DNA of 32,000 nucleotides. It comes from Nitrososphaerota archaeon. Lineage in GTDB: Archaea; Thermoproteota; Nitrososphaeria; Nitrososphaerales; UBA57. The position numbers and the translations under genes are program-made. Each line of letters opens with the position of its first letter. Position 1 is the first letter of the stretch. Shown here piece by piece: positions 2,258-20,444 of the stretch. The notes below the pieces were generated by a model. The model did not search any database and was not told the origin of the DNA. It saw nothing but the letters and a program-made list of their open reading frames with translations. The stretch is from the NCBI GenBank assembly GCA_016871995.1, contig VHBL01000007.1, positions 1 to 32,000 of the forward strand, in the 5' to 3' direction.

Positions 2258-2297
2258 TGGACCGGGAGGTATTTGAATATGTTTAGGTTCAAATACC
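2258..2297. repeat. Distal att site: tRNA-Ala 3'-end copy (2258-2277) overlapping a perfect 10-bp inverted repeat (2268-2277 / 2288-2297)
   Basis: 12/12 identity to 11327-11338 and 18/20 to 11327-11346. ggtatttgaa-N10-ttcaaatacc palindrome read directly. Confidence 0.65.
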
Positions 2298-2498
2298 TTA
2301 CTTTTAGAGGTAATTTATGATATGTCAGTATGTCAGTTAAGGGTTAAATGGGTTTGATTCTTGCTTATTCTAACAATCAGAGCAATTTCTGAAGGGGTAT
2401 ATATAGGGGTTGGCGGATTGTAGTCTAAGGTCGCTTATCCTCTAGGTCTTTGACTTCCTTAATTTTGGATTTCCTCATTCGTCTTCTAATGTCAAGAC

Positions 2499-3083
2499 CT
2501 ACTCAGCCCGAGGCTTTTGGGTATTCAATTCTAAGAGTTTTAGTTTGCTCTCATAATACTTGTCCATATCAGGAACCTTCGCAAGGATATCCACCAATAG
2601 AAGGGACTGCTGCATTATACCCAAACTTATTACATGTAGCCTTATCGGATCGTGGCTCAGGGGTGTCTCTGATTTCCTTGAAATCAGCATATCTCGTAAA
2701 ATAGAATTTGTAAGCATGTCAACCATGTCCCTCCAATATCTGCTATCACCTTCTCCCCTGCGAAGATGCTCGGCTATTTTGGTTCGGTTATGCACAACTC
2801 TTACGAGTCTTGCACCGAGTTCTATCAACCATTGGCTATATCCATCCTTGGAGAACTCATAAACAGCGTTTGGAGGAAAGACCTTCTCTTTGTGCCTTAA
2901 AATGACACCTTCTTTTTCAAGCCAGTCAAGATACTTTCGCAGTGATGCGGTTCCTATACCCTTCCCCTTCTCTTGAATCTCCCGCCAAGGTTTAGGCTTC
3001 CCATCAGAAAATAATTTTAGAATGAAGTTCATAATACGGTTTTCATCAGAAAGAACCCTCTCTTCAAGATTGGTCATTTCCAT
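2499..3083 (-). CDS. Winged-helix DNA-binding protein (element-encoded regulator)
   Basis: The ORF-track start at 3113 is TTG, so I prefer the ATG at 3083 (MEMTNLEER...). N-terminal ILKLFSDGKPKPWREIQEKGKGIGTASLRKYLDWLEKEGVILRH looks like a wHTH recognition helix plus wing. It is divergent from the RHH gene. Confidence 0.5.
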   Translation of the reverse strand: MEMTNLEERVLSDENRIMNFILKLFSDGKPKPWREIQEKGKGIGTASLRKYLDWLEKEGVILRHKEKVFPPNAVYEFSKDGYSQWLIELGARLVRVVHNRTKIAEHLRRGEGDSRYWRDMVDMLTNSILRDMLISRKSETPLSHDPIRLHVISLGIMQQSLLLVDILAKVPDMDKYYESKLKLLELNTQKPRAE

Positions 3084-3156
3084 AAATGGCTCATATTTCA
3101 GTATCAAAAACAAACTTTATAAACATGTTGTTTTCATATTTCAGCATCGAAAACAA
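3084..3156. promoter_or_regulatory. Divergent promoter/operator: palindromic TATA box tttataaa (3116-3123) flanked by two 24-bp direct repeats
   Basis: tcatatttcagtatcaaaaacaaa (3091-3114) and tcatatttcagcatcgaaaacaaa (3134-3157) match at 22/24. The TATA box lies 33 nt from the minus-strand ATG (3083) and 34 nt from the plus-strand ATG (3157). Confidence 0.5.
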
Positions 3157-3318
3157 ATGAAAAAGCAAACCGAATACATCACCCTGTGTTTAGACATGGA
3201 GACTTTCAAGCGCCTCGAGGCCCGAGCAGAGCAGGAAGAAAGAAAACCGGGGCAGCTTGCACGATTGATTTTGAAAAAAGTGCTTGGAACCGAAGAGGAG
3301 GTTGCAATCGCAGCATGA
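3157..3318 (+). CDS. Ribbon-helix-helix (CopG/Arc/MetJ-like) protein
   Basis: 53 aa from the internal ATG: MKKQTEYITLCLDMETFKRLEARAEQEERKPGQLARLILKKVL. This is a beta-strand/helix/helix pattern typical of RHH. The upstream part of track ORF 3022-3318 overlaps the divergent gene and promoter. Confidence 0.6.
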   Translation: MKKQTEYITLCLDMETFKRLEARAEQEERKPGQLARLILKKVLGTEEEVAIAA

Positions 3319-3542
3319 AGGTTTCACTCGCGAGGACGAAGGGCTACGTTTCGAAATTACCAGTGTCGACTTTCAAAAACATCATTTTGGCCGAGCGTGA
3401 TGAAATTGAGCTCTCTGACCTGATTTCGAAACTTGAAACTTGGGAAATTCTACTCAATCAAGAAATGAGCTTTCGGGAGAAGTCCGGTTCAACGAAACTT
3501 CTCCCGGCTGCAGAGCCGGTTTCTTTAGGAGGCCCTGTGTAA
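3315..3542 (+). CDS. Hypothetical protein (75 aa), translationally coupled to the RHH gene
   Basis: ATGA overlap: the start at 3315-3317 overlaps the RHH stop at 3316-3318. No recognisable motif. Confidence 0.45.
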   Translation: MKVSLARTKGYVSKLPVSTFKNIILAERDEIELSDLISKLETWEILLNQEMSFREKSGSTKLLPAAEPVSLGGPV

Positions 3543-3543
3543 A

Positions 3544-4374
3544 GTGTTTACAGTCAATGCTGATATTAAAACGTTAACGCTTCAGGGGTTCATTAAGCTC
3601 TATCTTGAGTGGGGTATTTCTTTTGTACCTCTAATATACAAAGACAAAGCTCCGGCTCTTCAAGAAGGCGAGATTTACAAGTATCGGAAGAGGCAACCCA
3701 ACGAACAAGAGATAAAAAGATGGTTTTACAATGGCTCGCAACATGGCATAGCTGCTGTTTGTGGTTTCAATAACTTAGTATGCTTGGATTTTGACGATCG
3801 GAAGACATTCGAAGCCTACATAGCTGGAAGGCCCTTACCAGAAACTTTCATAACAAAGAGTGCCAGAGGCGTCCATCTTTACTTCATCAACGATAAGCCA
3901 ATTGGTAGTATGAGATACGAGGGCTTGAAAGTCGAACTGCTGGGGGCGTGGCATCTTTCAACGCTTCCGCCCTCTTTGCATCCTTCTGGCATTCAACATT
4001 CAATACTCAACATGCGTCCGATCAAATCGGTATTTGGAATTGAGACGGCATTTAACGCATTTGCAAAGTCTCAGGGTATAGACACTAAGAAATCTTCTAA
4101 GGCCATCACAAAGGCAGATTTAACGGGAATCGTCCCTGAGGGGATTAGGCACGAAACGGCAAAGAATTATGCTAAGCACCTCATTAGAGGCTTAAAACTA
4201 GATAGTACAACGTCTCTGTTCGAGCTTCAACGCTGGAATGAGAAGCATTGCGTACCTCCCCTTCCTGAAGGGGAACTCATAGACCTAGTACGGTATTTCA
4301 GCTCGAAGCAAAGGCAGATTTCTGCAGATTTGACCGAGGAGTTTGCAAAAAGGAGGGGTAGCTTTGCAGAGTGA
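3544..4374 (+). CDS. Bifunctional DNA primase-polymerase (AEP prim-pol domain)
   Basis: GISFVPL...KAP, LVCLDFDD (DxD metal site) and ARGVHLYF (sGxGxHxYF-like) in the order expected for Prim-Pol/pRN1-type AEP domains. GTG start 1 nt after the upstream stop. Confidence 0.7.
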   Translation: MFTVNADIKTLTLQGFIKLYLEWGISFVPLIYKDKAPALQEGEIYKYRKRQPNEQEIKRWFYNGSQHGIAAVCGFNNLVCLDFDDRKTFEAYIAGRPLPETFITKSARGVHLYFINDKPIGSMRYEGLKVELLGAWHLSTLPPSLHPSGIQHSILNMRPIKSVFGIETAFNAFAKSQGIDTKKSSKAITKADLTGIVPEGIRHETAKNYAKHLIRGLKLDSTTSLFELQRWNEKHCVPPLPEGELIDLVRYFSSKQRQISADLTEEFAKRRGSFAE

Positions 4375-5701
4375 ACTTTCCACAATCGCTTTGACAGAAG
4401 ACACTAAACCATATGAAGTTGCAGAGGCATACCTTCAAGCAGCTTTTGTAAAGACATTTTTTGACTCGAGTGAGATAGTCCTCTATCACGAAAAAGGGGT
4501 TTATGTTAGAAACGCCGAATGGATAATTGCAAAGGACATCGAAGAGGTCTTTCATAAGAAGAAGTTAGATAAACTTCTGACTAACAACTTCCTTACTGAA
4601 GTTCTAGGTCATATAAGGAGGAGAACTTATGTTAACCGCTCAGAGTTTGATAAAGAGCCTTTTATTCTTAATCTAAAGAATGGATTACTCAATGTACAAA
4701 CAGGGGAATTTACAAAGCACAGTCCTGAGCATCTCTCTTTAGTACAGTTTCAGGTTGAATACAATCCGAAGGCGAATTGCCTTAAGATAGCAAAGTTCCT
4801 TTCAGAAGTGTTATTCCCTGACGATCTCCAATGTGTACAAGAATACGTTGGTTTCTGTTTATGGAAAGAGTACACGGTTGCAAAGGCTCTCTTACTCGTT
4901 GGAGAAGGTGGAAACGGGAAGTCAACTTTCATTTTATTGATTAAGGCATTAATCGGAAGTGAAAATACCTCCTCAGTTTCACTTCAAGAATTGGAATATA
5001 ACAGATTTGCGAAAGCAGATTTGTACGGAAAGCTAGCTAACCTCTATGCAGATCTTCCTGATGAAGCTCTAAAGAGCGCTGGGGTTTTCAAAATGTTGAC
5101 CGGCAAAGATCCAATAAGGGGAGAGTACAAATTCAGAAATTCCTTTCCCTTTGTCAATCTTGCAAAGTTGATTTTTAGTGCTAATAAGGTTCCAGAGTCA
5201 TATGAAGATACGACAGCATTCTTTCGGCGTTGGATAATTATTCTATTTCCTTTTACATTCATAGGCAAGAATGAGAACAAAGACCTCGTCAATGAGCTGA
5301 CAACGGAAGAGGAGCTTTCAGGCTTCTTGAATTGGGCTTTAGAAGGGCTGCAAAGACTTAGAGCTAACGGTTGGAACTTCAGTAATAGTAGGAGCGTAGA
5401 AGAGGTCAGGGAAGAGTACATTCGAAAATCCTCCCCGATACAAGCTTTCATCATGGATTGTATTGATATTGATAGTTATAGCGAAATTCCGAAAAAACAG
5501 CTATTCGATAAGTTTCTTGAGTACTGTAAGAGCAAGAAACTACCTGCTCCTTCAGATCAGACCTTTTTCAAGAAATTACCTCGATTTGTCAACATAACTG
5601 ACACTAGGCCGGAGGTTGGCGGAAAGAGAGTTCCCTGTTTCAAAGGGATCAAACTAAAGGAAGAGGAGGGCGTAAGAAACGCTCAAGCAAAGATTAGTTA
5701 A
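4343..5701 (+). CDS. D5/P4-type SF3 helicase (phage/plasmid primase C-terminal domain)
   Basis: Walker A LLVGEGGNGKST. Downstream KLANLYADLPDE then RGEYKFRNSFPF, typical of D5_N/primase-C families. The start is ambiguous: TTG at 4343, or TTG at 4364 which lies 8 nt after ggagggg. Confidence 0.75.
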   Translation: MQKGGVALQSELSTIALTEDTKPYEVAEAYLQAAFVKTFFDSSEIVLYHEKGVYVRNAEWIIAKDIEEVFHKKKLDKLLTNNFLTEVLGHIRRRTYVNRSEFDKEPFILNLKNGLLNVQTGEFTKHSPEHLSLVQFQVEYNPKANCLKIAKFLSEVLFPDDLQCVQEYVGFCLWKEYTVAKALLLVGEGGNGKSTFILLIKALIGSENTSSVSLQELEYNRFAKADLYGKLANLYADLPDEALKSAGVFKMLTGKDPIRGEYKFRNSFPFVNLAKLIFSANKVPESYEDTTAFFRRWIIILFPFTFIGKNENKDLVNELTTEEELSGFLNWALEGLQRLRANGWNFSNSRSVEEVREEYIRKSSPIQAFIMDCIDIDSYSEIPKKQLFDKFLEYCKSKKLPAPSDQTFFKKLPRFVNITDTRPEVGGKRVPCFKGIKLKEEEGVRNAQAKIS

Positions 5702-5712
5702 CTCTTCTGACA

Positions 5713-5811
5713 TTAAGATAGGAAAAACCCCTGACAGAGTTGACAGGGTTGACGGAACTAGGGTTTTTGCGTCAGGGCTGTCAGGGCTGTCAACCCATTT
5801 CCCTATCTTAA
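5713..5811. repeat. 99-bp composite palindrome: outer 10-bp IR enclosing 3 forward + 3 inverted 9-bp iterons (YTGACRG core)
   Basis: ttaagatagg (5713-5722) pairs with cctatcttaa (5802-5811). Forward units are ccctgacag, agttgacag, ggttgacgg (5729-5755). Inverted units are gcgtcaggg, ctgtcaggg, ctgtcaacc (5769-5795). The spacer is 13 bp. Confidence 0.8.
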
Positions 5812-6053
5812 GTTCCGAAAGCCCAAAGGCTAACCCTTCAACCTTAGACTATTGGATCCAAAGTCCGAAACTTAACGCTAGGTTAACTCTAATCAAAGAA
5901 AAACCCTCTAAACTTAACGGGTTAACTATTCCTTCCTTCAGGCTAGGAATAAAATGCTCTGAGCATAAAGACCTTCAATATAACAATCCAATTTCATGGA
6001 GAGATCACTACCTCTTAACGCATGGCTTGATATTTGAAGAGGAGCAAAGTTAG

Positions 6054-6293
6054 ATGCCGAAAGCTAGGCTTGAAAGCGAAGGCAGTTATGAGAGATGGCT
6101 TAGTCAGGTTGCGAAGTTTAGCAATCGCTTTAGCCCTTACAAAATTCCCAGAACAAAGGAGCATGGAATAAGGAAGAGGCCGAAGCCTGAGCATGAAGCT
6201 ACAATCAGATACGAATGTAAGCCATGTGATCTAACCTTTCAGAATTTAGATTTGTACGAGATTCACAATGCGCTCAAGCATAAAGCAGGATAG
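6054..6293 (+). CDS. C2H2 zinc-finger protein
   Basis: YECKPCDLTFQNLDLYEIHNALKH is a classical C-x2-C-x12-H-x4-H finger. gaggag lies upstream of the ATG. Confidence 0.6.
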   Translation: MPKARLESEGSYERWLSQVAKFSNRFSPYKIPRTKEHGIRKRPKPEHEATIRYECKPCDLTFQNLDLYEIHNALKHKAG

Positions 6294-6969
6294 TGTTAGC
6301 AAATTGCAAACAATCAAGAATAAACGCAAAGGAAAGATGCTCCAACCTGAGGTTGCTCAAAAATGGGAAGCTCTGAAGCAATCTCTAAACTTCAGATCGG
6401 ATAACGAATTTGCCAATGCTCTTTTAGAAACTCAGAAGGATCGCTTAGTCCCCTTTGTCAGCCATGAAACTGTATTTAATTCACCTGCTCCAACTCTCAT
6501 AATTGGGGAGCCGGGTTCAAGAAAAACAACCTTAGTTAAGCAGTTAATCCCTTCAATTCGAAATTCTATCCTATGCATTGATCCCCATAGCGAGTACTTA
6601 GAATTGGAGCAGTTCAACGGGAAGGGAGAGGTTGTTAGCAAAGTCCCCTTAGGTTTCGAAATACTGAAGGGTTCGATGATTGACTTTAGCAGGAAACAAC
6701 GATTGAGGTTTATCCCTTCACAAAACCCCTTTGTTTCTGAAGCTGAGACAACTAGCCTCTTTATGAGTTTGAATGAAAGCAGGGAAAAAATGAAGGGTTG
6801 GACTCTAATCGTTGACGAATGTCATAGGTTCTCAGGTAATAGTTTATTCCGAAGCTTCATAACAGAGAGTAGAAAGTATTCGATAAAGTCAATTTTGATA
6901 ACTGCTGATTATGCGAAGTTTGAAGGGTTGGGCTATTTCCTAAGGCCTGCTCCAATTGGAAGGGCTTGA
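6268..6969 (+). CDS. HerA/FtsK-like P-loop ATPase with deviant Walker A
   Basis: IIGEPGSRKTT (Walker A with R in place of the second conserved G), CIDPHSEY (HerA/DUF87-like DphgEY) and LIVDECHRF (Walker B). The ATG at 6337 is an alternative start that avoids overlap with the preceding gene. Confidence 0.6.
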   Translation: MRSSIKQDSVSKLQTIKNKRKGKMLQPEVAQKWEALKQSLNFRSDNEFANALLETQKDRLVPFVSHETVFNSPAPTLIIGEPGSRKTTLVKQLIPSIRNSILCIDPHSEYLELEQFNGKGEVVSKVPLGFEILKGSMIDFSRKQRLRFIPSQNPFVSEAETTSLFMSLNESREKMKGWTLIVDECHRFSGNSLFRSFITESRKYSIKSILITADYAKFEGLGYFLRPAPIGRA

Positions 6970-7278
6970 ATGTTTCCAATCGTCATATCCCCTGAAATTA
7001 CAATAGTCATCTTCGGCGTGATAGTCTTACTTACCCTTCTGTTTCTTCAATCCCTAATATCAGGGTTCGGCTTAAGGGCCATTACTCGTTTCATTGTGGC
7101 AATCTTGACCCTGCTCGGTTTTGCACTGGGCCTGATGCCATTTATCCTGAACTCAGCAGGCTCTTCGATGGAGCTTTCAATTTTTACTCTGGTCTTTTTA
7201 TCAATTGGCCTTTCGGTGTCTAGCTTCGCTTTGAGTTTTTTGATAATAAGACCCTCTGCCAGTCATGCCAGAGCCTAG
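6970..7278 (+). CDS. Small integral membrane protein (about 3 TM helices)
   Basis: The ATG immediately follows the ATPase TGA. 102 aa, almost entirely hydrophobic segments. Confidence 0.5.
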   Translation: MFPIVISPEITIVIFGVIVLLTLLFLQSLISGFGLRAITRFIVAILTLLGFALGLMPFILNSAGSSMELSIFTLVFLSIGLSVSSFALSFLIIRPSASHARA

Positions 7279-7471
7279 AATTTTAGTTAATAGCTGATCT
7301 AAGAAGGGGTACTATCACACGTACACACACTAATAGCAAATCTCAATCAAAATTTGTTATTTTGTTCGTGATCTGTCAAATTCAAAAATTCCGTCTAGCT
7401 GTGGATTGACCAAATCAAATTCAGCAGTTAACTTTCAAATCTTATCAGGCGACAAAAAGAATTGCCCAAAG

Positions 7472-7650
7472 ATGTTAAAGATGGTAAAGATGCCGAACAA
7501 CCGTCTGTTAGCATTATTTAATTAGTTGTGGTATATTGAGCGTCGCCCAATCAAACAATCCTAAAGTTAACCGAAGCTCTGTCAATGATTGATGTTGACG
7601 ATGTGGGTGAACAAGAAGAGATTGCCCGTCTATAGATATATTATTTCTAT
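7472..7650 (+). repeat. Direct repeat copy 1 (upstream of methyltransferase-like gene), containing two micro-ORFs
   Basis: 38-bp block 7561-7598 is identical to 8857-8894. 23-bp block 7628-7650 is identical to 8924-8946, with the same 67-bp spacing. Micro-ORFs: 7472-7525 (MLKMVKMPNNRLLALFN) and 7585-7635 (MIDVDDVGEQEEIARL). Confidence 0.85.
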
Positions 7651-7721
7651 ATTGGTAGTTGTCGGGCTAGTTTGGAGAATGAGTATGTTTTTATTTTTGT
7701 TGTCAAGTAGATGTAAAAGAC

Positions 7722-8684
7722 ATGGATAACGCTCTAATTAACAAAATTGAAGGCTCTCTTCTAAAATTAAGAATGTATCAAGCGCAGAGAACTCTCAGCA
7801 TAGAAAAATATTGGCAAATGACATCTTTTACAAAGTTAAGGAGTCGGTTCTCGGAAAAATATGCTTATGCTAACAGATACGATTGTTCGGCTTTCATGTT
7901 AGACTTTTGGAATAAAAAATGCCTTGAACTAGAAAAGAGATTCCTTCCATACCCCCCCTTTTCTTTTCTAAGGGACAAGACAATCAGAGCCACAATGAAT
8001 ATATCTGAAGGTTATGCTTTCTGGCTCTTACAAAAGTATCTCCAATTCCTAGAAACGAGACTTTCTGAAGATTACCTATCGAATATGCTTCAAGAAGATT
8101 ATGTTGGAGAGCAAATCATTCTTAATTCAAAATACATGACTTCGTATGAAACTGTCCAGCATCTTTATCACTTCTTAAAATTAGCTGATTTTGGATGCAA
8201 AATAGATGATGTATCAAGCGTTGTAGAATGGGGAGGAGGATATGGTGATATGGCGAAGCTTTTTGTCAGAATGAACTCAAATAGAAACGTCAGCTATACA
8301 ATAATAGATATTCCCATAATGTCCTGCCTTCAATGGCTTTATCTTTCAAGTATTTTTGGTGAAGGGAAGGTTAAGATTATCCAAGACAGAGGTGAGCGAA
8401 TTGATAACGGGAAAATAAATTTGCTTCCTATATCTCTGGTTGAAAAATGCGATATTAACGCTGATCTATTCATATCTACATGGGCTTTAAGCGAATGTAC
8501 TAATTATGCTCAAGATTACGTGGTCAATAAGAACTGGTTCAACGCTAGAAACATCTTGCTCGCCTATCAATATAACACTTCAGAGGTTCCAAATGCTGAA
8601 AGGTTAGGCAGGTTAGCAGAGCAAAGTGGAGCAAATGTGCAAGAAATGGAGATAGTGCCAAGACATCATTATGCTTTTCGGTAA
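7722..8684 (+). CDS. Putative class I SAM-dependent methyltransferase (sugar O-methyltransferase-like), cargo gene
   Basis: 320-aa ORF. VVEWGGGYGDMAKLF resembles SAM-binding motif I (E/DxGxGxG), followed by an acidic residue about 20 aa later (IIDIP). AT-rich relative to its surroundings. Assigned by motif only. Confidence 0.45.
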   Translation: MDNALINKIEGSLLKLRMYQAQRTLSIEKYWQMTSFTKLRSRFSEKYAYANRYDCSAFMLDFWNKKCLELEKRFLPYPPFSFLRDKTIRATMNISEGYAFWLLQKYLQFLETRLSEDYLSNMLQEDYVGEQIILNSKYMTSYETVQHLYHFLKLADFGCKIDDVSSVVEWGGGYGDMAKLFVRMNSNRNVSYTIIDIPIMSCLQWLYLSSIFGEGKVKIIQDRGERIDNGKINLLPISLVEKCDINADLFISTWALSECTNYAQDYVVNKNWFNARNILLAYQYNTSEVPNAERLGRLAEQSGANVQEMEIVPRHHYAFR

Positions 8685-8771
8685 CGGGGTTCAATTTAGG
8701 CTATTTCTACCACATGGTAAATATTGAATGTATAAATCTAATTAGAAGGCAGAAGATAGTACCTGTTAATA

Positions 8772-8946
8772 ATGGGACTGATGGGATTGGTGGAAATCCC
8801 GAACAACCTGCTAGGTAGATTTAATTAATTAGTTATGGTGGGACAATCAAACTATTCTAAAGTTAACCGAAGCTCTGTCAATGATTGATGTTGATGATGT
8901 TGACGAAGGGGACGATGATGCCGGTCTATAGATATATTATTTCTAT
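8772..8946 (+). repeat. Direct repeat copy 2 (downstream of methyltransferase-like gene), containing two micro-ORFs
   Basis: See copy 1. Micro-ORFs: 8772-8828 (MGLMGLVEIPNNLLGRFN) and 8881-8931 (MIDVDDVDEGDDDAGL). Confidence 0.85.
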
Positions 8947-9131
8947 GCTGATAATAGTTTGATTAGTTAACTTAGTGCAAAGTCCCTAGTATAGTCAGGC
9001 TCAAACCCTAGCTGACAAAGGCATGTTTCGGCATGGGTCCCCCTAGCCAAACAAAGAGGAAATTGGTTAACTCTTATTCAATATTCTCCTAGAAACTTAA
9101 CTTTAATAACCTGCAGGGACTATATCAAATC

Positions 9132-9746
9132 ATGCAAAGTCATTTAGTTTTGAAGGGAGCAGAAGAGCTGATTAAGGAAGAGCTAGGGGATAATCCTGCT
9201 CAGGATCAGAAGGTCAAGGTTTATGCTTCTCATTTAGCAGATAGATGCACTCAGTTATCAGGGGAAACATGGACTTCTAAGAACTGCACAAACTCTTTGC
9301 GATCTTACGGGCTTTGGGATAGCGAACGGTTTCCAACTTTGCAGGGGAAATACGGCTTCTACGTTTTAGTTTCTTTGAATGACCTAAAGCAATTGAACCT
9401 CTGGGAGTGCTATGTATGCAATAGCAGGATCGTCAAAGGTCAGGGTAATGTTTGGCCTCATATCTTTGAATGTTGGGTAGAAGGGGTTTCCTGCTCTAAT
9501 TTATATTGTAATACCGTTGTTAAATCCTATGAAGAGGTACTTGAACATGAAAAAAATTGTCAGGTTTCTTTTATACCCTATAACTATGGTAGTTGCCCTG
9601 CCTGCAATGCGAAAATAAAACTATCAGAAATCAGAAGGCATGTCAATCAATGCAAAGATATCTTATCATGGGAGGAGCCTGAGCAACCTAGCACAAAGGA
9701 AACAGAAACCCCTAGCATAATCGAAGTTAAGAATGAAGCGCCCTAG
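9132..9746 (+). CDS. Cysteine-rich protein with three C2HC-type zinc-finger-like motifs
   Basis: CYVCNSRIVKGQGNVWPHIFEC, CSNLYCNTVVKSYEEVLEHEKNC and CPACNAKIKLSEIRRHVNQC each follow a C-x2-4-C-x12-H-x3-C pattern. Confidence 0.55.
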   Translation: MQSHLVLKGAEELIKEELGDNPAQDQKVKVYASHLADRCTQLSGETWTSKNCTNSLRSYGLWDSERFPTLQGKYGFYVLVSLNDLKQLNLWECYVCNSRIVKGQGNVWPHIFECWVEGVSCSNLYCNTVVKSYEEVLEHEKNCQVSFIPYNYGSCPACNAKIKLSEIRRHVNQCKDILSWEEPEQPSTKETETPSIIEVKNEAP

Positions 9747-9792
9747 AAGAGTCAATCAGGATCTTCTAGCCATAATGCAAAGGTACGGGATT

Positions 9793-9946
9793 AGTGAAGA
9801 TGGTGAAGTTAGTGAAGGCAGTGAAGGTAAAAAACACCCCCCATTATTTCCAGAAGTTCGTCAATTAACTAATAAAGATTCGTCAGAAAAAACAGGGGAG
9901 GCTCTGGGAAGTTCACCACCTTCACCAAGTTCAGTAACTTCAGTAG
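9793..9946. repeat. Inverted arrays of 9-bp-phased GTGAAG hexamers (4 forward at 9793-9828, 4 inverted at 9911-9946)
   Basis: Forward: agtgaagat ggtgaagtt agtgaaggc agtgaaggt. Inverted: gttcaccac cttcaccaa gttcagtaa cttcagtag. Spacer 82 bp. The arrays lie just outside the integrase 3' end. Confidence 0.8.
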
Positions 9947-9952
9947 ATAAAG

Positions 9953-11272
9953 TCAGGAAGGCAGTTTGATGATCGCTTTATCGTTAGGGATATGCGTTGC
10001 AAATTCCCAACCCTGCAATATGTAATTCTCCAATTCGTTAAGAGGAATAACCTTCTGCCTTGATCCATTACCCGTTAACATCTCTCTGTACTTCTTAGCG
10101 ATAAGCTCCTGAAACTCTTTGCTAGTTATGTTTGCCAAATCTAGTTTAGCGATCTCCCCTTCTGAATAACCTAAATCTGCCAATAGAGCAGCTCTAAACC
10201 CTCCTCTAACATCTTGCTGAGAGCTGATAACCCTAGTCTGCAAATATTCCTTTGAAGCTTTAGCATAGGAAGCTCTCATATCCTCTATTACGCTCTCAGG
10301 TAGTTTGTGCTTATTCGTTGTGTACCTAGCTTCGATATCCCCTTTATGTCCCATGAAAAAGACCCTATAATCTCTTAGAATGAGGCCCTTACTCTCAGCT
10401 AACATCATTTCAGTATCAAAATAACTTCTTAGAACATAGGGCCTCCATGAAAAACCTGCTTCCCTTATGGGACCTCTGAGAGCATCACCAATATTGTTAG
10501 ACCTGATAAACGGCCTGTCAGCTGCTTTGAATGTTGGTGATTTCGCTTTAATGAGAGGGGACTCTGGATCGAATTTACTAGTACCATTCCCCCTTAACCT
10601 GCTCTCAAGATAGTCTTTGAGATATTCGCAAGCCTCTTCATTCAGGAAGCTAAAGTATTGATGTCTTGCTTTGCTAAGTTGCGATCTGACAATAACCCTA
10701 GCAGGAATAACCGTAAAATTGACCTCTGACCCCTTGATCTCAAGCTCAGGAATATCCATAACTCTGAGTCCGTCAGAGCCGTCATAATTGCCAATACTTT
10801 CAAGCCTAAGGCCTGCAAAGCACACTAAGGAGGCCGTTGTCTTAACCTTCGGATCGGCAAAGGATAGTATCTTAACCAATTCCTTCTGAGTTGGGACTCT
10901 CTCTTCCTTCAGTGAAGGGGTTTCGTCAGCTCCTTTGACCTTGATTTTTCTTTTAACTTCAATCCCATGATGAGAGAGCCATGACTTTACATTCTTTAAC
11001 CTGCTTTCAACATAAGAGCCTGCATATTTCTGCCTCTCCATAGAGCTGACATAATCCATAAGGAGATTATAGAGGTCCTGCTCATTCAGCTTCAAAAGGT
11101 CTTTAGGTTGCTTTCTAACATTCTGACAGAAGTTTCCTAGTCCACGAAGATAAACGTCAGCTGTTGTTATTGCACCCCTAGCAACATTCTCATACCATCT
11201 TTTGATATCAGGGTCTTTAAGGAGGGCTTGATGTTCACCTTTGCCTTTTTCCCTATACTTCCCCTTAGCCAT
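9953..11272 (-). CDS. Tyrosine recombinase/integrase (non-partitioning type)
   Basis: AGLRLES (Arg I), YVLRSYF (Arg II region) and MGHKGDIEARY (His/Tyr nucleophile). Adjacent to the target tRNA. I prefer the ATG at 11272 (MAKGKYREK...), because the track start at 11368 reads through the tRNA gene. Confidence 0.85.
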   Translation of the reverse strand: MAKGKYREKGKGEHQALLKDPDIKRWYENVARGAITTADVYLRGLGNFCQNVRKQPKDLLKLNEQDLYNLLMDYVSSMERQKYAGSYVESRLKNVKSWLSHHGIEVKRKIKVKGADETPSLKEERVPTQKELVKILSFADPKVKTTASLVCFAGLRLESIGNYDGSDGLRVMDIPELEIKGSEVNFTVIPARVIVRSQLSKARHQYFSFLNEEACEYLKDYLESRLRGNGTSKFDPESPLIKAKSPTFKAADRPFIRSNNIGDALRGPIREAGFSWRPYVLRSYFDTEMMLAESKGLILRDYRVFFMGHKGDIEARYTTNKHKLPESVIEDMRASYAKASKEYLQTRVISSQQDVRGGFRAALLADLGYSEGEIAKLDLANITSKEFQELIAKKYREMLTGNGSRQKVIPLNELENYILQGWEFATHIPNDKAIIKLPS

Positions 11273-11326
11273 AACACTAAGTCTAAAAGATTGCACTAGA
11301 TAAGGGTATCTGAACCCGTTTATAGA

Positions 11327-11400
11327 TGGACCGGGAGGGATTCGAACCCTCGACCCCCACCATGCCAAAGTGGTATCCTACCAGGCTAGACGACCGGCCC
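11327..11400 (-). tRNA. tRNA-Ala (anticodon GGC)
   Basis: Manual cloverleaf: GGGCCGG/CCGGTCC acceptor with the G3:U70 alanine identity pair, anticodon loop TTGGCAT, T-arm GAGGG-TTCGAAT-CCCTC, discriminator A, no encoded CCA. Confidence 0.9.
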
Positions 11401-17710: not shown

Positions 17711-18652
17711 ATGGGGACCACGCATAAGGTAATTTTTGGTAATTCGCTGAACATGAAAGAGTTGCGGAGGAACAGTATTCATTTGGTAGTAACTTCTCCG
17801 CCATATTTTAACGCGCCTTTCGATTATCCAGATTTTTTCAAAACCTACAAGGATTTTCTAGCACTTATCAAAGGTATGGCGAAGGAGCTTAAACGAGTAG
17901 TCGCACCGGGCAGAGTTTGTTGCTTTGTTGTAGATGACATGCTTGTGGACGGTGAAAAGTTCCCTGTTGTTTCAGATGTTACACAAATAATGACACGATC
18001 AGGTTTCAGATATCGAGACAGAATAGTTTGGATAAAGCCCAAAGGCTATGTTAGGATTAGTCGGAGAAGCGGAGTTCTGTTGCAACATCCCTATCCGATG
18101 TATTTCTATCCTGACAACATGCAAGAAAGCATCCTTATCTTCCAAAAGGGGAAGTTTGATTATTCTTATCTTAAAACTCTGCCTGCTGAGGTCTTGGCTA
18201 GATCAAAGATAGATGTCAAGGAGTTCAATCTTACGGATGCGCCCTTTATGGTTTGGGACGACCTAAGCGGGGAGGAAAGAAAACCTATTCCAAACACGTG
18301 GCGGATCACTAATGTTCTGCCGATGAAAGGACGTTTGGAAGAGGGTGTGGCTGCCTTCCCCGGAGAAATCGCTAGACGGCTGGTAAAGCTGTTTACATTT
18401 ATTGGAGAGACTGTGCTTGACCCATTTGCAGGCTCGGGCACCACGCTCAAGGTTGCAAAAGAGTTAGGAAGGAATTCGGTTGGTTATGAAATTGATTTGG
18501 AGCTTAAGCCAGTCATCGCAGAAAAACTTGGACTTGAACAAGCTACACTTTCGAACGACGCAGTCGAGTTTCTAGAAAGAGATGATGCGGGTCATTTCCG
18601 AACCACCCTACAGGAAAAAGTGGAGCATAAAGAGAGTGTCGCTACAAGATGA
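17711..18652 (+). CDS. N4-cytosine/N6-adenine DNA methyltransferase (N6_N4_Mtase family, beta class)
   Basis: The catalytic VVTSPPYFNAP (S/DPPY) motif is N-terminal and the SAM motif VLDPFAGSGTTLKVA is C-terminal. This order is typical of beta-class amino-MTases. Confidence 0.85.
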   Translation: MGTTHKVIFGNSLNMKELRRNSIHLVVTSPPYFNAPFDYPDFFKTYKDFLALIKGMAKELKRVVAPGRVCCFVVDDMLVDGEKFPVVSDVTQIMTRSGFRYRDRIVWIKPKGYVRISRRSGVLLQHPYPMYFYPDNMQESILIFQKGKFDYSYLKTLPAEVLARSKIDVKEFNLTDAPFMVWDDLSGEERKPIPNTWRITNVLPMKGRLEEGVAAFPGEIARRLVKLFTFIGETVLDPFAGSGTTLKVAKELGRNSVGYEIDLELKPVIAEKLGLEQATLSNDAVEFLERDDAGHFRTTLQEKVEHKESVATR

Positions 18653-18841
18653 GCGCATCAGAATAACTGCTGAAATTACTGGTATAAAATATGTTCCGAA
18701 ACTTGGAAGGACGCTACACGAATTTTATATCTCATCACTGGCGGAGGCACTTTCGACAGATGTGTCGTTTTTTAGAAACGGATGATTGTACGTTAAGGGT
18801 TTATCTTGGATTTGGGCTGATTCTGGCGATGTTTTTTGTAG

Positions 18842-18916
18842 TGGGCCAGGGCGGACTTGAACCACCGACCTTCGCTGTGTAAGAGCGATGTCCTAACCAA
18901 GCTAGACGACTGGCCC
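18842..18916 (-). tRNA. tRNA-Val (anticodon TAC)
   Basis: Manual cloverleaf: GGGCCAG/CTGGCCC acceptor, anticodon stem TCGCT/AGCGA, loop CTTACAC, T-arm GGTGG-TTCAAGT-CCGCC, discriminator A. Confidence 0.9.
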
Positions 18917-18980
18917 GAGCTGAGCCAGAACTTGCATTTTCTAATAAGCATTCTAACTTCATATTTTATTTCTGCAGGTC

Positions 18981-20444
18981 TTATTTCTTTATCCTGAAGC
19001 AAAGGCGTTTGATTTTGAACTCCCCGGGTGAAAGCTTGCAGAGCCAATCATGCACCCTCTGCCTGAGCTCCACCGCTATGTCCATGGTAATGCTGAGTTC
19101 TTCATCGGTAAAGTCTCCATGCGGGCTAATTATCTTGAGAATTCCGCTTGCAAGTTTCCTGATGCTCTTTTCGTCGCGAATCCCGAGATTTCCTCCCTCT
19201 GCTGAAAGTTCTACCCTCTCGGCAATATGGTGCTGAAAGTCTTCCTTCCTTAGCTGGTTCATGACCTCGCAGAAATACTGCGAAACGAATCCGTAACTCT
19301 TTGAAAGATGCAGATCGCTCTGCATGATCTTTGGCAGTTCCCAGCCAGGGATGAATCCGTGAATCCTATCGACAAAAGCAGAATCCCGCATGCATTCAGG
19401 AATGACCCCTGAAAATTCTTCGCCAGGCAGGTTTCCCTTCACCTCTATATTACCCATGAAGACGAGCGAGCACGTGCTTCTGACGCGCTTTAGCATGCCT
19501 CTTTCAAATTCGCCACTCTCCATGTAGTCTTTCAGTTTGCCCATCATCTCCTCAGGGTTTGCGAACTCGATCTTGCTTATTTCATCGAAGACTACGCATT
19601 CCCTGACCCCTATCTCCCCCAGAGTCTTGAAGTTGCCATGATAGAATAACACTGCAGGGCTGACCTTTCCCCCTGAAAAGAGCCTTGTATAGTATGAAAT
19701 ATTCTTGAAAAGAAACGATTTGCCTGTGGCTCTTGGTCCGAGCTCCAAGACGTTTACGTTCTGCTCGACCAGCGGGATGAGCCTCGAAAGCAGAAGCAGC
19801 TTCTGCCTGCGTGAATAGACTTCTGGGTTGAGCCCTATTGTATTGATTATTGAGGACATCCACTCTTCAGTTGAAAAATGCTTCCTCTTCCCGTTGAACT
19901 CCTCTATGTTGAAAGTAGAATACTGGAGGGGTTCGAACTCGGTCATGATGATTGGGGAGTTCAGCTCCTGCTGGGTTCCGTAGTTGAACTCTGGTGAATA
20001 ATTTATTGTAGCAACTCCCCAAATGCCCGCCTCGAGAAGGTCTTTTTGCTTCTCGAGTAGGGATGCCCTGATTCTTGCATTGTAAATGCCCAGGCACGGC
20101 ACTTCGACTCTGTGAATGCCATTTTTGATATCTACGCGTACCTTGAATTCGTCCAAAAGCGTGTATTGGCCTTTAGTAAATAGCTCGTGCAGGACCCTGT
20201 CCTTCATCTTAGCTTCAGGGTAGTAGCGATTGACAAACTTGGCCATTTCTGCAAGGTCCTTGGGCTTGACACTGTCTCCGCAGAAACGCTTGATAGCAGA
20301 CTCGGCTATGAATCTTGGCAGTCTGCTAACCTCACGCAGCTCGTAAAGTTTCTTGTTGACTATCTGGTCAGGGAAGTTCCTCTTGAGCTTCGAATCTAGA
20401 AGCTCCTGAGGGCTCTTCACTGACTGGGTAATCGTGGCTGGCAC
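18981..20444 (-). CDS. BrxL-like AAA+ ATPase, short form without Lon-protease domain (TIGR02688-like)
   Basis: RRQKLLLLSRLIPLVEQNVNVLELGPRATGKSFLF...LFSGGKVSPAVLFYH...VVFDEISKI...KDYMESGEFERG...CSLVFMGNIE matches my recollection of the conserved BrxL ATPase core (ELGPRGTGKS, SGG.T.A.LF, FDE, KDYMESG.F.RG). At 487 aa it is too short to include a Lon protease domain. Confidence 0.65.
   Translation of the reverse strand: MPATITQSVKSPQELLDSKLKRNFPDQIVNKKLYELREVSRLPRFIAESAIKRFCGDSVKPKDLAEMAKFVNRYYPEAKMKDRVLHELFTKGQYTLLDEFKVRVDIKNGIHRVEVPCLGIYNARIRASLLEKQKDLLEAGIWGVATINYSPEFNYGTQQELNSPIIMTEFEPLQYSTFNIEEFNGKRKHFSTEEWMSSIINTIGLNPEVYSRRQKLLLLSRLIPLVEQNVNVLELGPRATGKSFLFKNISYYTRLFSGGKVSPAVLFYHGNFKTLGEIGVRECVVFDEISKIEFANPEEMMGKLKDYMESGEFERGMLKRVRSTCSLVFMGNIEVKGNLPGEEFSGVIPECMRDSAFVDRIHGFIPGWELPKIMQSDLHLSKSYGFVSQYFCEVMNQLRKEDFQHHIAERVELSAEGGNLGIRDEKSIRKLASGILKIISPHGDFTDEELSITMDIAVELRQRVHDWLCKLSPGEFKIKRLCFRIKK

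Follow-up and report, generated by a model that had tools for sequence, protein, structure and literature searches.

A pair of direct repeats brackets a methyltransferase gene in the 32,000-nucleotide stretch of archaeal DNA analyzed here (the window), and the explanation that we favor, at roughly even confidence, is that these repeats are duplicated noncoding junction or control DNA at a recombination hotspot where versions of a gene are swapped. The repeats sit in the accessory region of an integrated element. The duplication was probably created by recombination, and the repeats may be able to mediate the loss or gain of the gene between them. The features of the locus are listed in Table 1.

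Table 1. Features of the integrated element and the repeat locus, with positions numbered from the first nucleotide of the window
Feature	Position	Strand	Remarks
Integrated element, ~9.1 kb	2258-11338		Holds the repeats; tRNA-Ala target
att repeats, 12 bp	2258-2269 and 11327-11338		TGGACCGGGAGG; the latter is the 3' end of tRNA-Ala
isl192	2499-3077	-	Divergently transcribed; candidate wHTH regulator of the element
Prim-Pol	3544-4374		Within the element
D5-like helicase	4364-5701		Within the element
Two copies of composite motif	5868-5931		AAACTTAACG..GTTAACT; helicase-isl79 spacer; same motif family as the GTTAAC of the 38-bp block
102-aa hydrophobic orphan ORF	6970-7278	+	Upstream of copy A; absent from sister elements (no tblastn match in L098)
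Repeat copy A	7472-7650		Upstream of the methyltransferase gene; extra, more diverged paralogue
Perfect 38-bp block, copy A	7561-7598		GTTAAC at 7566-7571; palindrome TCAATGATTGA
Variable 29-bp segment, copy A	7599-7627		Purine rich; GAN-type triplet periodicity
Perfect 23-bp block, copy A	7628-7650		TATA-like; inverted repeat ATAGA-N9-TCTAT
Methyltransferase gene	7722-8684	+	SAM-dependent (sugar) O-methyltransferase-like; AT-rich allele, GC 0.364
Repeat copy B	8772-8946		Between methyltransferase and zinc-finger genes; positional orthologue of the single spacer module of sister elements
Perfect 38-bp block, copy B	8857-8894		GTTAAC at 8862-8867
Variable 29-bp segment, copy B	8895-8923		
Perfect 23-bp block, copy B	8924-8946		
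Zinc-finger promoter-proximal region	9005-9131	+	TATA-like CTTTAATAAC at ~-30; outside the repeat
C2HC zinc-finger protein gene	9132-9746	+	Downstream of copy B; 84% identical in sister elements
Tyrosine integrase	9953-11272	-	Weak Phage_integrase and XerD matches

Direct repeats of about 175 bp around the methyltransferase gene, as described in the original prediction, were recovered both as collinear repeat families (D1, D4, and D6) and by pairwise alignment. A permutation test placed significant similarity within the tabulated limits only; similarity of the flanks on either side was not significant, and a longer repeat, reaching leftward to ~7425 or rightward to ~7672, was rejected on the same test. 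The perfect 38-bp and 23-bp blocks were confirmed, with the same 67-bp spacing in both copies, and the many differences said to lie between them amount to 12 of 29 bases with no indel. Each block occurs exactly twice in the window, even with three mismatches allowed (0 occurrences expected), and nhmmer found no third copy of the repeat there. Independent assemblies (ENA, JGI, and Logan) are 100% identical across the locus, and the Logan unitigs stop exactly k-1 = 30 nt inside the 38-bp block; breaks at that distance are expected for a true repeat. A search for further copies of the two blocks, proposed with the original prediction and carried out with exact and degenerate DNA queries, returned none in 23 kb of host flank, 80 thaumarchaeal loci, 185,579 genomes, and the viral and metagenome collections, the metagenome collection being incomplete for this lake (its scan missed a JGI contig known to contain the repeat). 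Zero matches were obtained when the blocks were compared by blastn with phage and plasmid collections.

The divergence between the copies is uneven, and this unevenness is real, beyond chance (P < 1e-3). In the comparison of A with B, which rests on these two copies only, there are 27 differences over 132 gap-free columns; given that number, an identical run of at least 38 has a permutation probability of 8e-4, and an additional second run of at least 23 was seen in 0 of 200,000 permutations. Perfect blocks around a 29-bp segment that is 41% diverged look unlike the outcome of simple duplication and drift, and such a pattern would have to come from selection acting on the blocks or from conversion in short, discontinuous tracts.

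The host is a freshwater, ammonia-oxidizing thaumarchaeon: archaeal markers are encoded in the window (proteasome alpha, aIF2alpha, Snf7/CdvB, and DUF2070), and a flanking helicase is 88% identical to a protein from a Thaumarchaeota MAG. Because the host is archaeal, a near-consensus sigma-70 promoter match in the 38-bp block (TTGACA-16-TAGAAT, minus strand) was discarded as irrelevant; matches of this kind mislead unless the domain of life of the host is checked. The element is missing from the two nearest genomes (L007 and L008), whose homology to the window begins at ~11.5 kb. It has the makeup of a cryptic integrated element (CIE), with an integrase, att repeats, a tRNA target, and a replication module and with no virion or conjugation genes, and its own tRNA-targeting integrase is the only recombinase present. 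The helicase had no match in viral contigs, and no defense-system or phage-family assignment was found for the cargo.

The bracketed gene had been called methyltransferase-like, and this assignment holds. Its product matched TIGR04371 at an E value of 1.3e-10 (just under the cut-off of that model), and the top Foldseek PDB matches of its AlphaFold model (pLDDT 94) were SAM-dependent O-methyltransferases, with a probability of 1.0. P0003 was considered as a third methyltransferase allele and set aside, as it sits in an unrelated glycan-biosynthesis-like cluster without the repeat module. When three abutting small proteins were searched as one concatenated query, a single weak match was obtained and the window's own proteins were not returned either, which makes this search weak evidence for orphans.

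Sister elements occupy the same chromosomal site, with a flank that is 99.9% identical and an integrase that is 99.3% identical. Identity to the window element is 84% for the zinc-finger protein, 50 to 68% for the ATPase, and 49% (amino acids) for the methyltransferase. The methyltransferase slot, which lies between the ATPase and zinc-finger genes, is filled in the sisters by a xenologous allele (GC of 0.608 versus 0.364), and these elements have a single spacer module and no 102-aa gene. Both element types co-occur in sample 3300020200. The samples in which the window element is present are JGI 3300020193, 3300020197, 3300020198, 3300020200, and 3300020221; SRR16108667, SRR16108672, and SRR16108673; SRR7052762; SRR7985589; and the runs of ERZ27247963. 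Furthermore, the sister spacer is a mosaic with breakpoints: L098 and L096 differ in a swapped segment of ~100 to 127 bp, to either side of which their identity is 99.6%, and the L098 version of that segment matches the right flank of copy B at 28 of 29 positions. The sister spacers are strongly diverged from the repeat, the homology of their left and middle parts being weak (nhmmer E values of ~1e-3 to 1e-2). The zinc-finger-proximal 125 bp are ~90% conserved in 4/4 sister spacers, whereas the sequence upstream of that region is not. The 23-bp block is not conserved in the sisters and the first block is heavily altered; a family-wide constraint on the blocks is therefore unsupported. Throughout its length, copy B is nearer than copy A to the L096 and L098 spacers (z = 3.7, 6.0, and 12.1 for the left, middle, and right parts, respectively).

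In the explanation that we prefer, the accessory region would be a site of recombination between coexisting element variants, where the methyltransferase slot is refilled with unrelated alleles and the adjoining spacer becomes a patchwork. The AT-rich methyltransferase allele would have come to lie between two copies of the spacer, of which B is the resident, orthologous one and A the extra paralogue. The duplicated segment includes AT-rich, TATA-like sequence and a single GTTAAC, a motif that recurs across the element and is a putative operator, and its 38-bp and 23-bp blocks would provide homology enough for further recombination, by which the 1,296-bp unit could be deleted or circularized. 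The idea that the repeats are recombination boundaries was among the options raised in the original prediction. The allele swap and the mosaic spacer in the sisters speak for it, but the deletion product that it predicts was not found: neither a variant lacking the 1,296-bp unit nor a circular junction was present among the available contigs, which were identical, too short, or broken at the repeat for reasons of assembly. Integration of a mini-circle by a single crossover, which predicts that the left part of copy A and the right part of copy B are resident, was rejected, as the left, middle, and right parts of copy B all resemble the sister spacers more than those of copy A do. GC content was uninformative for the mini-circle model.

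A regulatory component is suggested by the distribution of GTTAAC, which occurs 11 times in the island against 1.6 expected, a number reached in 0 of 300 simulations. The three large spacers contain or border 8 of the 11 sites, whereas 23 kb of host DNA has only 1 site. The motif pair in the helicase-isl79 spacer is 93% conserved in L098, and in the same sister the composite TTAAC-N1-7-GTTAAC is intact at the site equivalent to the 38-bp block (TTAACGGTTAAC). GTTAAC is a putative operator for an element-encoded regulator, and isl192, which has weak matches to HxlR (E = 9e-4), Csa3, and phrog_2030 (a transcriptional regulator family), may be the protein that binds it. Operator repeats are familiar from regulators of other mobile elements, examples being the F55 sites of SSV1 and the stoperators of mycobacteriophages. 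The likeness lies in an element-specific rGTTAACTcT or TTAAC-N-GTTAAC that recurs in several intergenic regions and is kept in the sister elements; however, the repeat described here is far longer than an operator, and the binding is putative.

Several other readings of the repeat were weighed against this background. It could be a selected promoter/operator, or promoter plus insulator, of which each copy controls the gene downstream; proteins would bind to the two blocks, whose 67-bp phasing is fixed, and the 29-mer would be a free spacer. Such a role would fit the patchy conservation far above chance, the element-wide motif inside the 38-bp block, the TATA-like 23-bp block with its inverted repeat, the same block spacing in copies A and B, and the presence of candidate element-encoded DNA-binding proteins. 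By sequence, however, both flanked genes have their own TATA-like box ~30 nt upstream of the ATG, a distance typical of the host (range, -28 to -42); these boxes, including that of the methyltransferase gene (TTTTTATTTTT, at -35 to -25), fall outside the repeat, and the distance from the 23-bp block to the ATG is unequal (82 nt for the methyltransferase versus 196 nt for the zinc-finger gene). In addition, the same zinc-finger gene in the sisters does without the 23-bp block and with an altered first block while the 125 bp next to it are kept, and no terminator-like structure or T5 tract is common to both copies. We consider this role unlikely, and the promoter/leader shared by the two genes that was originally put forward is largely unsupported, although a putative regulatory motif (GTTAAC) is present. 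The micro-ORFs gave rise to a different proposal, namely, that ORF1 (17/18 aa; 7472-7525 and 8772-8828) and the acidic ORF2 (16 aa; 7585-7635 and 8881-8931) are translated into leader or regulatory peptides or enzyme substrates. Their translations are as originally given, both are open in both copies, the 29-mer keeps a G-first triplet periodicity and an acidic character, 6 of the 12 differences fall at third codon positions (two are synonymous and two change E to D), and a TATAAAT lies 40 nt upstream of the ORF1 ATG in copy B. That preservation of frame would be nontrivial is nevertheless a claim that fails, since the start and stop of ORF2 lie in identical blocks with no indel between them and only ~9 codons must avoid stops; the probability that ORF2 is open in both copies is 0.25 to 0.33. 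The +1 frame is likewise open in both, "conserved" micro-ORFs exist in all three plus-strand frames, and the distribution of ORF2 differences over codon positions (3/3/6) is not significant. The codon alignment of ORF1 has 7 nonsynonymous changes versus 1 synonymous change, with identity limited to contiguous DNA motifs, and its TATA-like box ~40 nt upstream is convincing in copy B only, in a flank that is not homologous between the copies. ORF2 has neither a Shine-Dalgarno sequence nor a TATA box at the usual leaderless distance of the host, whereas internal genes of the island have AGGAGG. Examination of additional copies, as suggested at the outset, was possible in the sister spacers, which have no ORF1 and no start codon in the frame of ORF2 and in which the frames are related to one another differently. 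Degenerate-codon DNA scans for micro-ORF homologues gave 0 matches, and a search of 1.84 billion proteins with the ORF2-frame peptide gave one, a spurious eukaryote-like tandem-repeat protein. We attach very little credence to small-peptide genes; the micro-ORFs would instead be by-products of DNA identity, and apparent micro-ORF conservation in near-identical DNA misleads unless the chance expectation is checked. The candidate peptides read MIDVDDVGEQEEIARL and MLKMVKMPNNRLLALFN.

It is also very unlikely that the ~120-nt core (first block, variable 29-mer, and second block) is a small RNA in which the blocks form a scaffold and the 29-mer confers specificity, even though the layout of conserved scaffold and variable insert, a closing helix with two compensatory pairs in RNAalifold, and a perfect 12-bp inverted repeat around the copy B core would suit one. 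Consensus folding, carried out on both strands, gave weak structures (-11.8 and -6.9 kcal/mol), single-sequence z-scores range from -0.2 to -2.0, the covariation was matched by 111 of 500 shuffles, and the compensatory pairs have their 3' partners outside the significant A/B homology, where the right arm in copy B also lies. The scaffold is not conserved in the sister copies. With the Rfam 15 covariance models only two tRNAs reached the gathering score in the window, and the core matched no family even at E values of up to 10, the best score in the region being that of snoR113 (18.7 bits against a cut-off of 47). The variable 29-mers showed no complementarity or match elsewhere in the window, and a guide or antisense role for them was dropped for want of a target there. 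Almost no credence, finally, is given to the repeats as attC-like sites of a cluster of attC sites lacking an integron integrase (CALIN), as att sites of a nested mini-element, or as two MITE insertions. The repeat-ORF-repeat-ORF arrangement in one orientation, repeats of ~120 to 180 bp, and an inverted pair in copy B resembling R''/R' recall integrons, which like CALINs are on record in archaea (Ghaly et al. 2022, PMC9668308). The copy B core is bounded by ATCAAAC...GTTTGAT (6/7 each versus RYYYAAC/GTTRRRY) and has a VCR-like length of ~121 bp, and a tyrosine recombinase is encoded nearby. In contrast to attC sites, there is no near-full-length bulged hairpin in single-stranded DNA (the 131-nt fold reaches -10 to -11 kcal/mol and leaves most of the interior unpaired), copy A has no terminal stem and matches the core-site consensus at only 4/7 at its right end, and the sole recombinase is the element's tRNA-targeting enzyme, not an integron integrase. 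Moreover, the repeated unit and the inverted repeat have different ends: on the left, the A/B homology reaches ~75 bp beyond the supposed end, and the right arm of copy B, outside that homology, is shared with L098 as ordinary flank. A MITE is contradicted by the lack of a target-site duplication and by an inverted repeat that occurs in copy B only and not at the ends of the unit. On the grounds of single-stranded DNA folding, repeat boundaries, and copy number (two copies only), the attC and MITE readings were rejected.

The locus reveals no new kind of system. The earlier statement that no described system has this layout was too strong, as T4-type phages offer a close functional analogue in their promoter-early stem-loop (PeSL) cassettes (PMC2839356). 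These mobile regulatory cassettes (Arbiol et al. 2010, PMC2839356; Comeau et al. 2014, PMC4122927) number ~50 per genome; they contain a stable terminator stem-loop and, directly before the gene, a sigma-70 promoter that has been tested, and their mini-circles have been demonstrated (PMC2839356; PMC4122927). In both cases the mobile genome has a hyperplastic region where accessory or ORFan genes lie between conserved intergenic motifs of ~100 bp or more. In comparisons of close relatives, the bracketed gene is found inserted, deleted, or replaced, and homology between the flanking copies, which also contain transcription signals, is the proposed substrate for excision and insertion. At the present locus, the repeat is found on both sides of the methyltransferase gene, in a region that is hypervariable between sister elements. 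Unlike PeSLs, however, the module occurs as two copies in 32 kb of an archaeal element, neither copy has a stable or shared stem-loop or an intrinsic-terminator-like site, the flanked genes have predicted TATA boxes that the repeat does not include, and no product of excision was seen. Judged by these likenesses and differences, the module appears functionally analogous to PeSLs but is not a member of the PeSL family.

The element itself resembles the thaumarchaeal CIEs surveyed by Krupovic et al. (2019, PMC6563490) in its tyrosine integrase, short att repeats, tRNA target, Prim-Pol/helicase, and methyltransferase cargo. That survey deals with gene content and att sites, and the passages of it that were searched contain no mention of repeated intergenic modules flanking cargo or of allele swapping within a population. 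A stronger version of the PeSL comparison would make the module an archaeal counterpart, that is, a portable control and recombination cassette that includes the operator (GTTAAC) of the element's own regulator and whose blocks are kept as protein-binding or crossover sites; we regard this as distinctly unlikely. If it were true, small thaumarchaeal elements would capture accessory genes and swap them among coexisting strains, and alternative sugar O-methyltransferase alleles might remodel cell-surface glycans. If our preferred explanation of spacer duplication at a gene-swapping hotspot is correct, the locus would be a clean, small, natural example of accessory-gene exchange in the poorly known mobile elements of ammonia-oxidizing archaea. 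Within the same lake population, at the same tRNA-Ala site and with 99%-identical integrases, unrelated methyltransferase alleles (36% versus 61% GC) lie beside a patchwork spacer. Since these variants with swapped alleles coexist, cargo swapping driven by recombination in thaumarchaea would be directly testable from the read-level data of existing metagenomes.

The two direct repeats that flank the methyltransferase-like gene are a real feature, and one with an ordinary explanation. A repeat search (collinear direct-repeat families at about 7482-7672 and 8788-8968) and concordant alignments showed that the original prediction had placed both copies, A and B, accurately; in a permutation test of successive segments, significant similarity was limited to these two intervals, and the adjoining segments on both sides gave no significant similarity. 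The starts of the perfect 38-bp and 23-bp blocks lie 67 bp apart in both copies, and each block occurs exactly twice in the window with up to 3 mismatches allowed, while 12 of the 29 bases between them differ. The 132 gap-free columns contain 27 differences; at that density, a run of at least 38 identical positions has a P value of 8e-4, and such a run plus a second of at least 23 arose in 0/200,000 permutations; the uneven divergence is not due to chance. No third copy was found in the window with a two-copy nhmmer profile, and direct searches of all collections with the two blocks gave no matches. The independent ENA, JGI, and Logan assemblies are 100% identical; Logan unitigs end exactly 30 nt (k-1) inside the 38-bp block, which in a de Bruijn graph marks a true repeat as opposed to biological variants.

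Coordinates of the features discussed
Feature	Position	Remark
Integrated element	2258-11338	~9.1 kb
att direct repeat TGGACCGGGAGG	2258-2269; 11327-11338	12 bp exact, 18/22 extended; second is the 3' end of tRNA-Ala(GGC)
Repeat copies A; B	7472-7650; 8772-8946	
38-bp block	7561-7598; 8857-8894	
23-bp block	7628-7650; 8924-8946	
Sigma-70-like match	7558-7585; 8854-8881	minus strand
Methyltransferase gene	7722-8684	sister alleles: L096 12401-13354 (-), L098 1521-2465
ORF1	7472-7525; 8772-8828	
ORF2	7585-7635; 8881-8931	
GTTAAC, element	3573, 4631, 5697, 5882, 5921, 7427, 7566, 8862, 8966, 9066, 10074	
GTTAAC, host	28406	
isl192/isl53 TATA region	3078-3156	
Helicase-isl79 spacer	5702-6053	
Inverted repeats GTTGACAGGGTTGAC / GTCAGGGCTGTCAAC	5739-5794	around T-rich center
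AAACTTAACG..GTTAACT, twice	5868-5931	
CCCTAG	8984, 9006, 9041	CTAGGG at ~5759
Conserved DNA 5' of zinc-finger gene	9005-9131	
78-aa ORF	9733-9969	9-bp tandem repeats, 9791-9826
tRNA-Val	18841-18916	

The repeats sit inside an integrated element that encodes a tyrosine integrase, a Prim-Pol, a D5-like helicase, and a small ATPase. It is absent from the two nearest genomes, whose homology to the window begins only at ~11.5 kb, and it is an ordinary member of the published "cryptic integrated elements" (CIE) of Thaumarchaeota (PMC6563490). A bacterial origin of the window is ruled out by archaeal gene content (proteasome alpha subunit, aIF2alpha, Snf7/CdvB, and DUF2070) and Nitrososphaerota relatives: the chromosomal DEAD/MZB helicase adjoining the element is 88% identical to a homologue from a groundwater Thaumarchaeota MAG, all related loci (80/80) are from Nitrososphaerota, and the named relatives of the element helicase are Nitrososphaerales "P4-family primases." Because the host is not bacterial, the near-consensus sigma-70 match in each 38-bp block (TTGACA-16-TAGAAT, 11/12), although striking enough to mislead, is meaningless as a promoter and was dropped.

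Searches with the small proteins abutting the repeats gave no lead to related elements; sister elements (L096 and L098) were reached through the integrase's 90%-identity cluster. They occupy the same chromosomal site in the same population, and sample 3300020200 holds both element types. Identity to the window is 99.9% for the host flank, 99.3% for the integrase, 84% for the zinc-finger protein, 50 to 68% for the ATPase, and 49% for the methyltransferase, whose GC content is 0.608 in the sisters versus 0.364 in the window. The sister gene order is ATPase, 89 bp, methyltransferase, ~400-bp spacer, zinc-finger gene, and integrase; the 102-aa gene is absent, and nothing repeat-like lies 5' of the methyltransferase. 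This order and the divergent allele argue that the methyltransferase occupies a resident slot of the element family, refilled by a xenologous allele, and is not repeat-defined cargo. The enzyme assignment itself was borne out by a match to TIGR04371 ("putative sugar O-methyltransferase"; E=1.3e-10, slightly below the family cutoff) and by an AlphaFold model (pLDDT 94.4) whose top PDB matches are SAM-dependent O-methyltransferases (probability 1.0); with 298 homologues, the closest 50% identical, it is a real and widespread protein. The cluster that holds a third allele, P0003 (locus L101), is unrelated and glycan-biosynthesis-like.

The repeat has a recognizable relative in the single spacer of the sisters (nhmmer E=1.5e-6 for L098 and ~1e-3 to 1e-2 for L096 and two further loci, L099 and L100); this spacer lacks the 23-bp block and, of the 38-bp block, keeps only GTTAAC, GCTCTG, and ATGATGTTGA. 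Similarity to the sister spacers (z scores for left, middle, and right parts) is 3.7, 6.0, and 12.1 for copy B and 1.3, 2.8, and 2.1 for copy A; since B is closer in all three parts, we infer that it is the positional orthologue of the sister spacer and that A is an extra paralogue. L098 and L096 are 99.6% identical on either side of the spacer, within which a ~100- to 127-bp segment is swapped; the L098 version matches the flank directly right of copy B at 28/29 positions. The last ~125 bp before the zinc-finger start, including its TATA-like box, are ~90% conserved in every variant. CCCTAG occurs three times within 60 bp to the right of copy B, and part of that stretch, CCCTAGCTGACAAAGGCAT, is conserved in the sister spacers. 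At least two more variants (L095, from JGI 3300020221, and L097, from SRR7052762) diverge from the window just past the integrase, with 75 to 88% identity over the first 80 to 230 bp before the contigs end; the population thus has more cargo-region haplotypes than those compared. A 78-aa ORF overlapping the ends of the zinc-finger and integrase genes is probably not a conserved gene, because 42-bp and 79-bp deletions interrupt it in the sisters.

The original prediction took the preservation of two micro-ORF frames (ORF1, 17/18 codons; ORF2, 16 codons) as a nontrivial signal, a view that did not survive simulation. The ATG and stop of ORF2 both lie within the perfect blocks and the 29-mer is free of indels, so only ~9 stop-free codons are needed; ORF2 is open by chance with a P value of 0.50 to 0.58 per copy and 0.25 to 0.33 for both. 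The +1 frame is likewise open across the variable segment in both copies, and all three plus-strand frames yield "conserved" micro-ORFs: the two predicted, M/LSVAQSNNPKVNRSSVND versus MVGQSNYSKVNRSSVND, and a hydrophobic one of 46/25 aa. The ORF2 differences (3/3/6 over codon positions) show no significant positional bias. The ORF1 frame is made of 9-nt tandem units, with identity restricted to the contiguous DNA motifs CCGAACAACC and TTTAATTA, and its codon changes, read directly from the sequences, are 7 nonsynonymous and 1 synonymous. Real genes of the window have a TATA box 28 to 42 nt 5' of the ATG, and internal genes of the element's island have an AGGAGG-type Shine-Dalgarno sequence; neither was found for ORF2. 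Degenerate codon-level scans of metagenome and viral collections for EALSMIDVDD gave no match, and the single match of the stop-to-stop ORF2 frame among 1.84 billion proteins proved on inspection to be a spurious tandem-repeat protein. In the sister spacer, ORF1 is absent and the ORF2 frame has no start codon.

The element has 11 copies of the hexamer GTTAAC against 1.6 expected from a first-order Markov model (at least 11 in 0/300 simulations), and the 22.9 kb of host DNA has one against 3.7 expected; the host may avoid this palindrome. The three large spacers account for eight of the element's sites, counting those at spacer edges; each 38-bp block contains one of them, and the extended consensus is approximately rGTTAACTcT. 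A composite form, TTAAC-N1-7-GTTAAC, is found twice in the spacer between the helicase and isl79 genes (0.07 expected); L098 has it in the same two places and once more in the module, at the place taken by the 38-bp block in copies A and B, which carry a degenerate CTAAAGTTAAC there. The first block is thus a descendant of the element-wide motif, for which an operator function is plausible. Proteins that may bind it are isl192 (weak wHTH/regulator matches in Pfam, PADLOC, and PHROGs), the C2H2-like isl79, and the 204-aa C2HC protein. The isl192 (-) and isl53 (+) genes diverge from a common region with a palindromic TATA box, TTTATAAA, a layout typical of a regulator/operon switch. The helicase-isl79 spacer, whose GTTAACT-containing part is 93% conserved in L098, could be where replication of the Prim-Pol/helicase replicon starts or is controlled.

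The reading we favor, with about even confidence, is that the repeats are duplicated noncoding junction or control DNA in the element's accessory region, at a hotspot of recombination. The duplicated segment would carry the putative operator and AT-rich, TATA-like sequence, and in the window variant the methyltransferase allele, AT-rich and swapped in, would have one copy on either side. The perfect blocks would provide homology able to delete or circularize the 1,296-bp unit; no variant with the deletion foreseen in the original prediction was seen, and a simple mini-circle single-crossover model failed a partition test, copy B being closer to the sister spacers throughout. Perfect blocks around a 41%-diverged 29-mer could possibly reflect selection on two binding sites in this element lineage or, equally a possibility, conversion in short and discontinuous tracts, as known from work on Sulfolobus recombination.

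Other roles for the repeats fared poorly. A structured RNA was rejected: consensus folds are weak (-11.8 and -6.9 kcal/mol; z scores of -0.2 to -2.0), two "compensatory" pairs were equaled in 111/500 shuffles and have 3' partners outside the significant homology, and no Rfam family matched the repeats. The variable 29-mers have no target anywhere in the window, as a guide-like role would require. Copy B contains a perfect 12-bp inverted repeat resembling R''/R', and integrons occur in Archaea (PMC9668308); however, the locus lacks their defining features. Against an attC site or MITE, the single-stranded fold does no better than -10 to -11 kcal/mol and leaves its interior unpaired, copy A has no stem, one inverted-repeat arm falls beyond the limits of the repeat, and dispersed copies are lacking.

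Among known systems, the nearest in function is the PeSL cassette of T4-type phages, in which a repeated promoter/terminator motif brackets ORFans and mediates their shuffling (PMC2839356). Unlike PeSLs, which have ~50 copies and a terminator stem-loop, this locus has two copies and no stem-loop, and the promoters of the flanked genes lie outside the repeat; it is not a PeSL. Its value is modest, as a clean case, within one population, of an archaeal element swapping alleles of its cargo. In the host DNA at 17711-20444, close to tRNA-Val, are genes for an N6/N4 DNA methyltransferase and for a BrxL-like protein (BrxL_N and BrxL_ATPase), possibly a fragment of a BREX-type defense locus.
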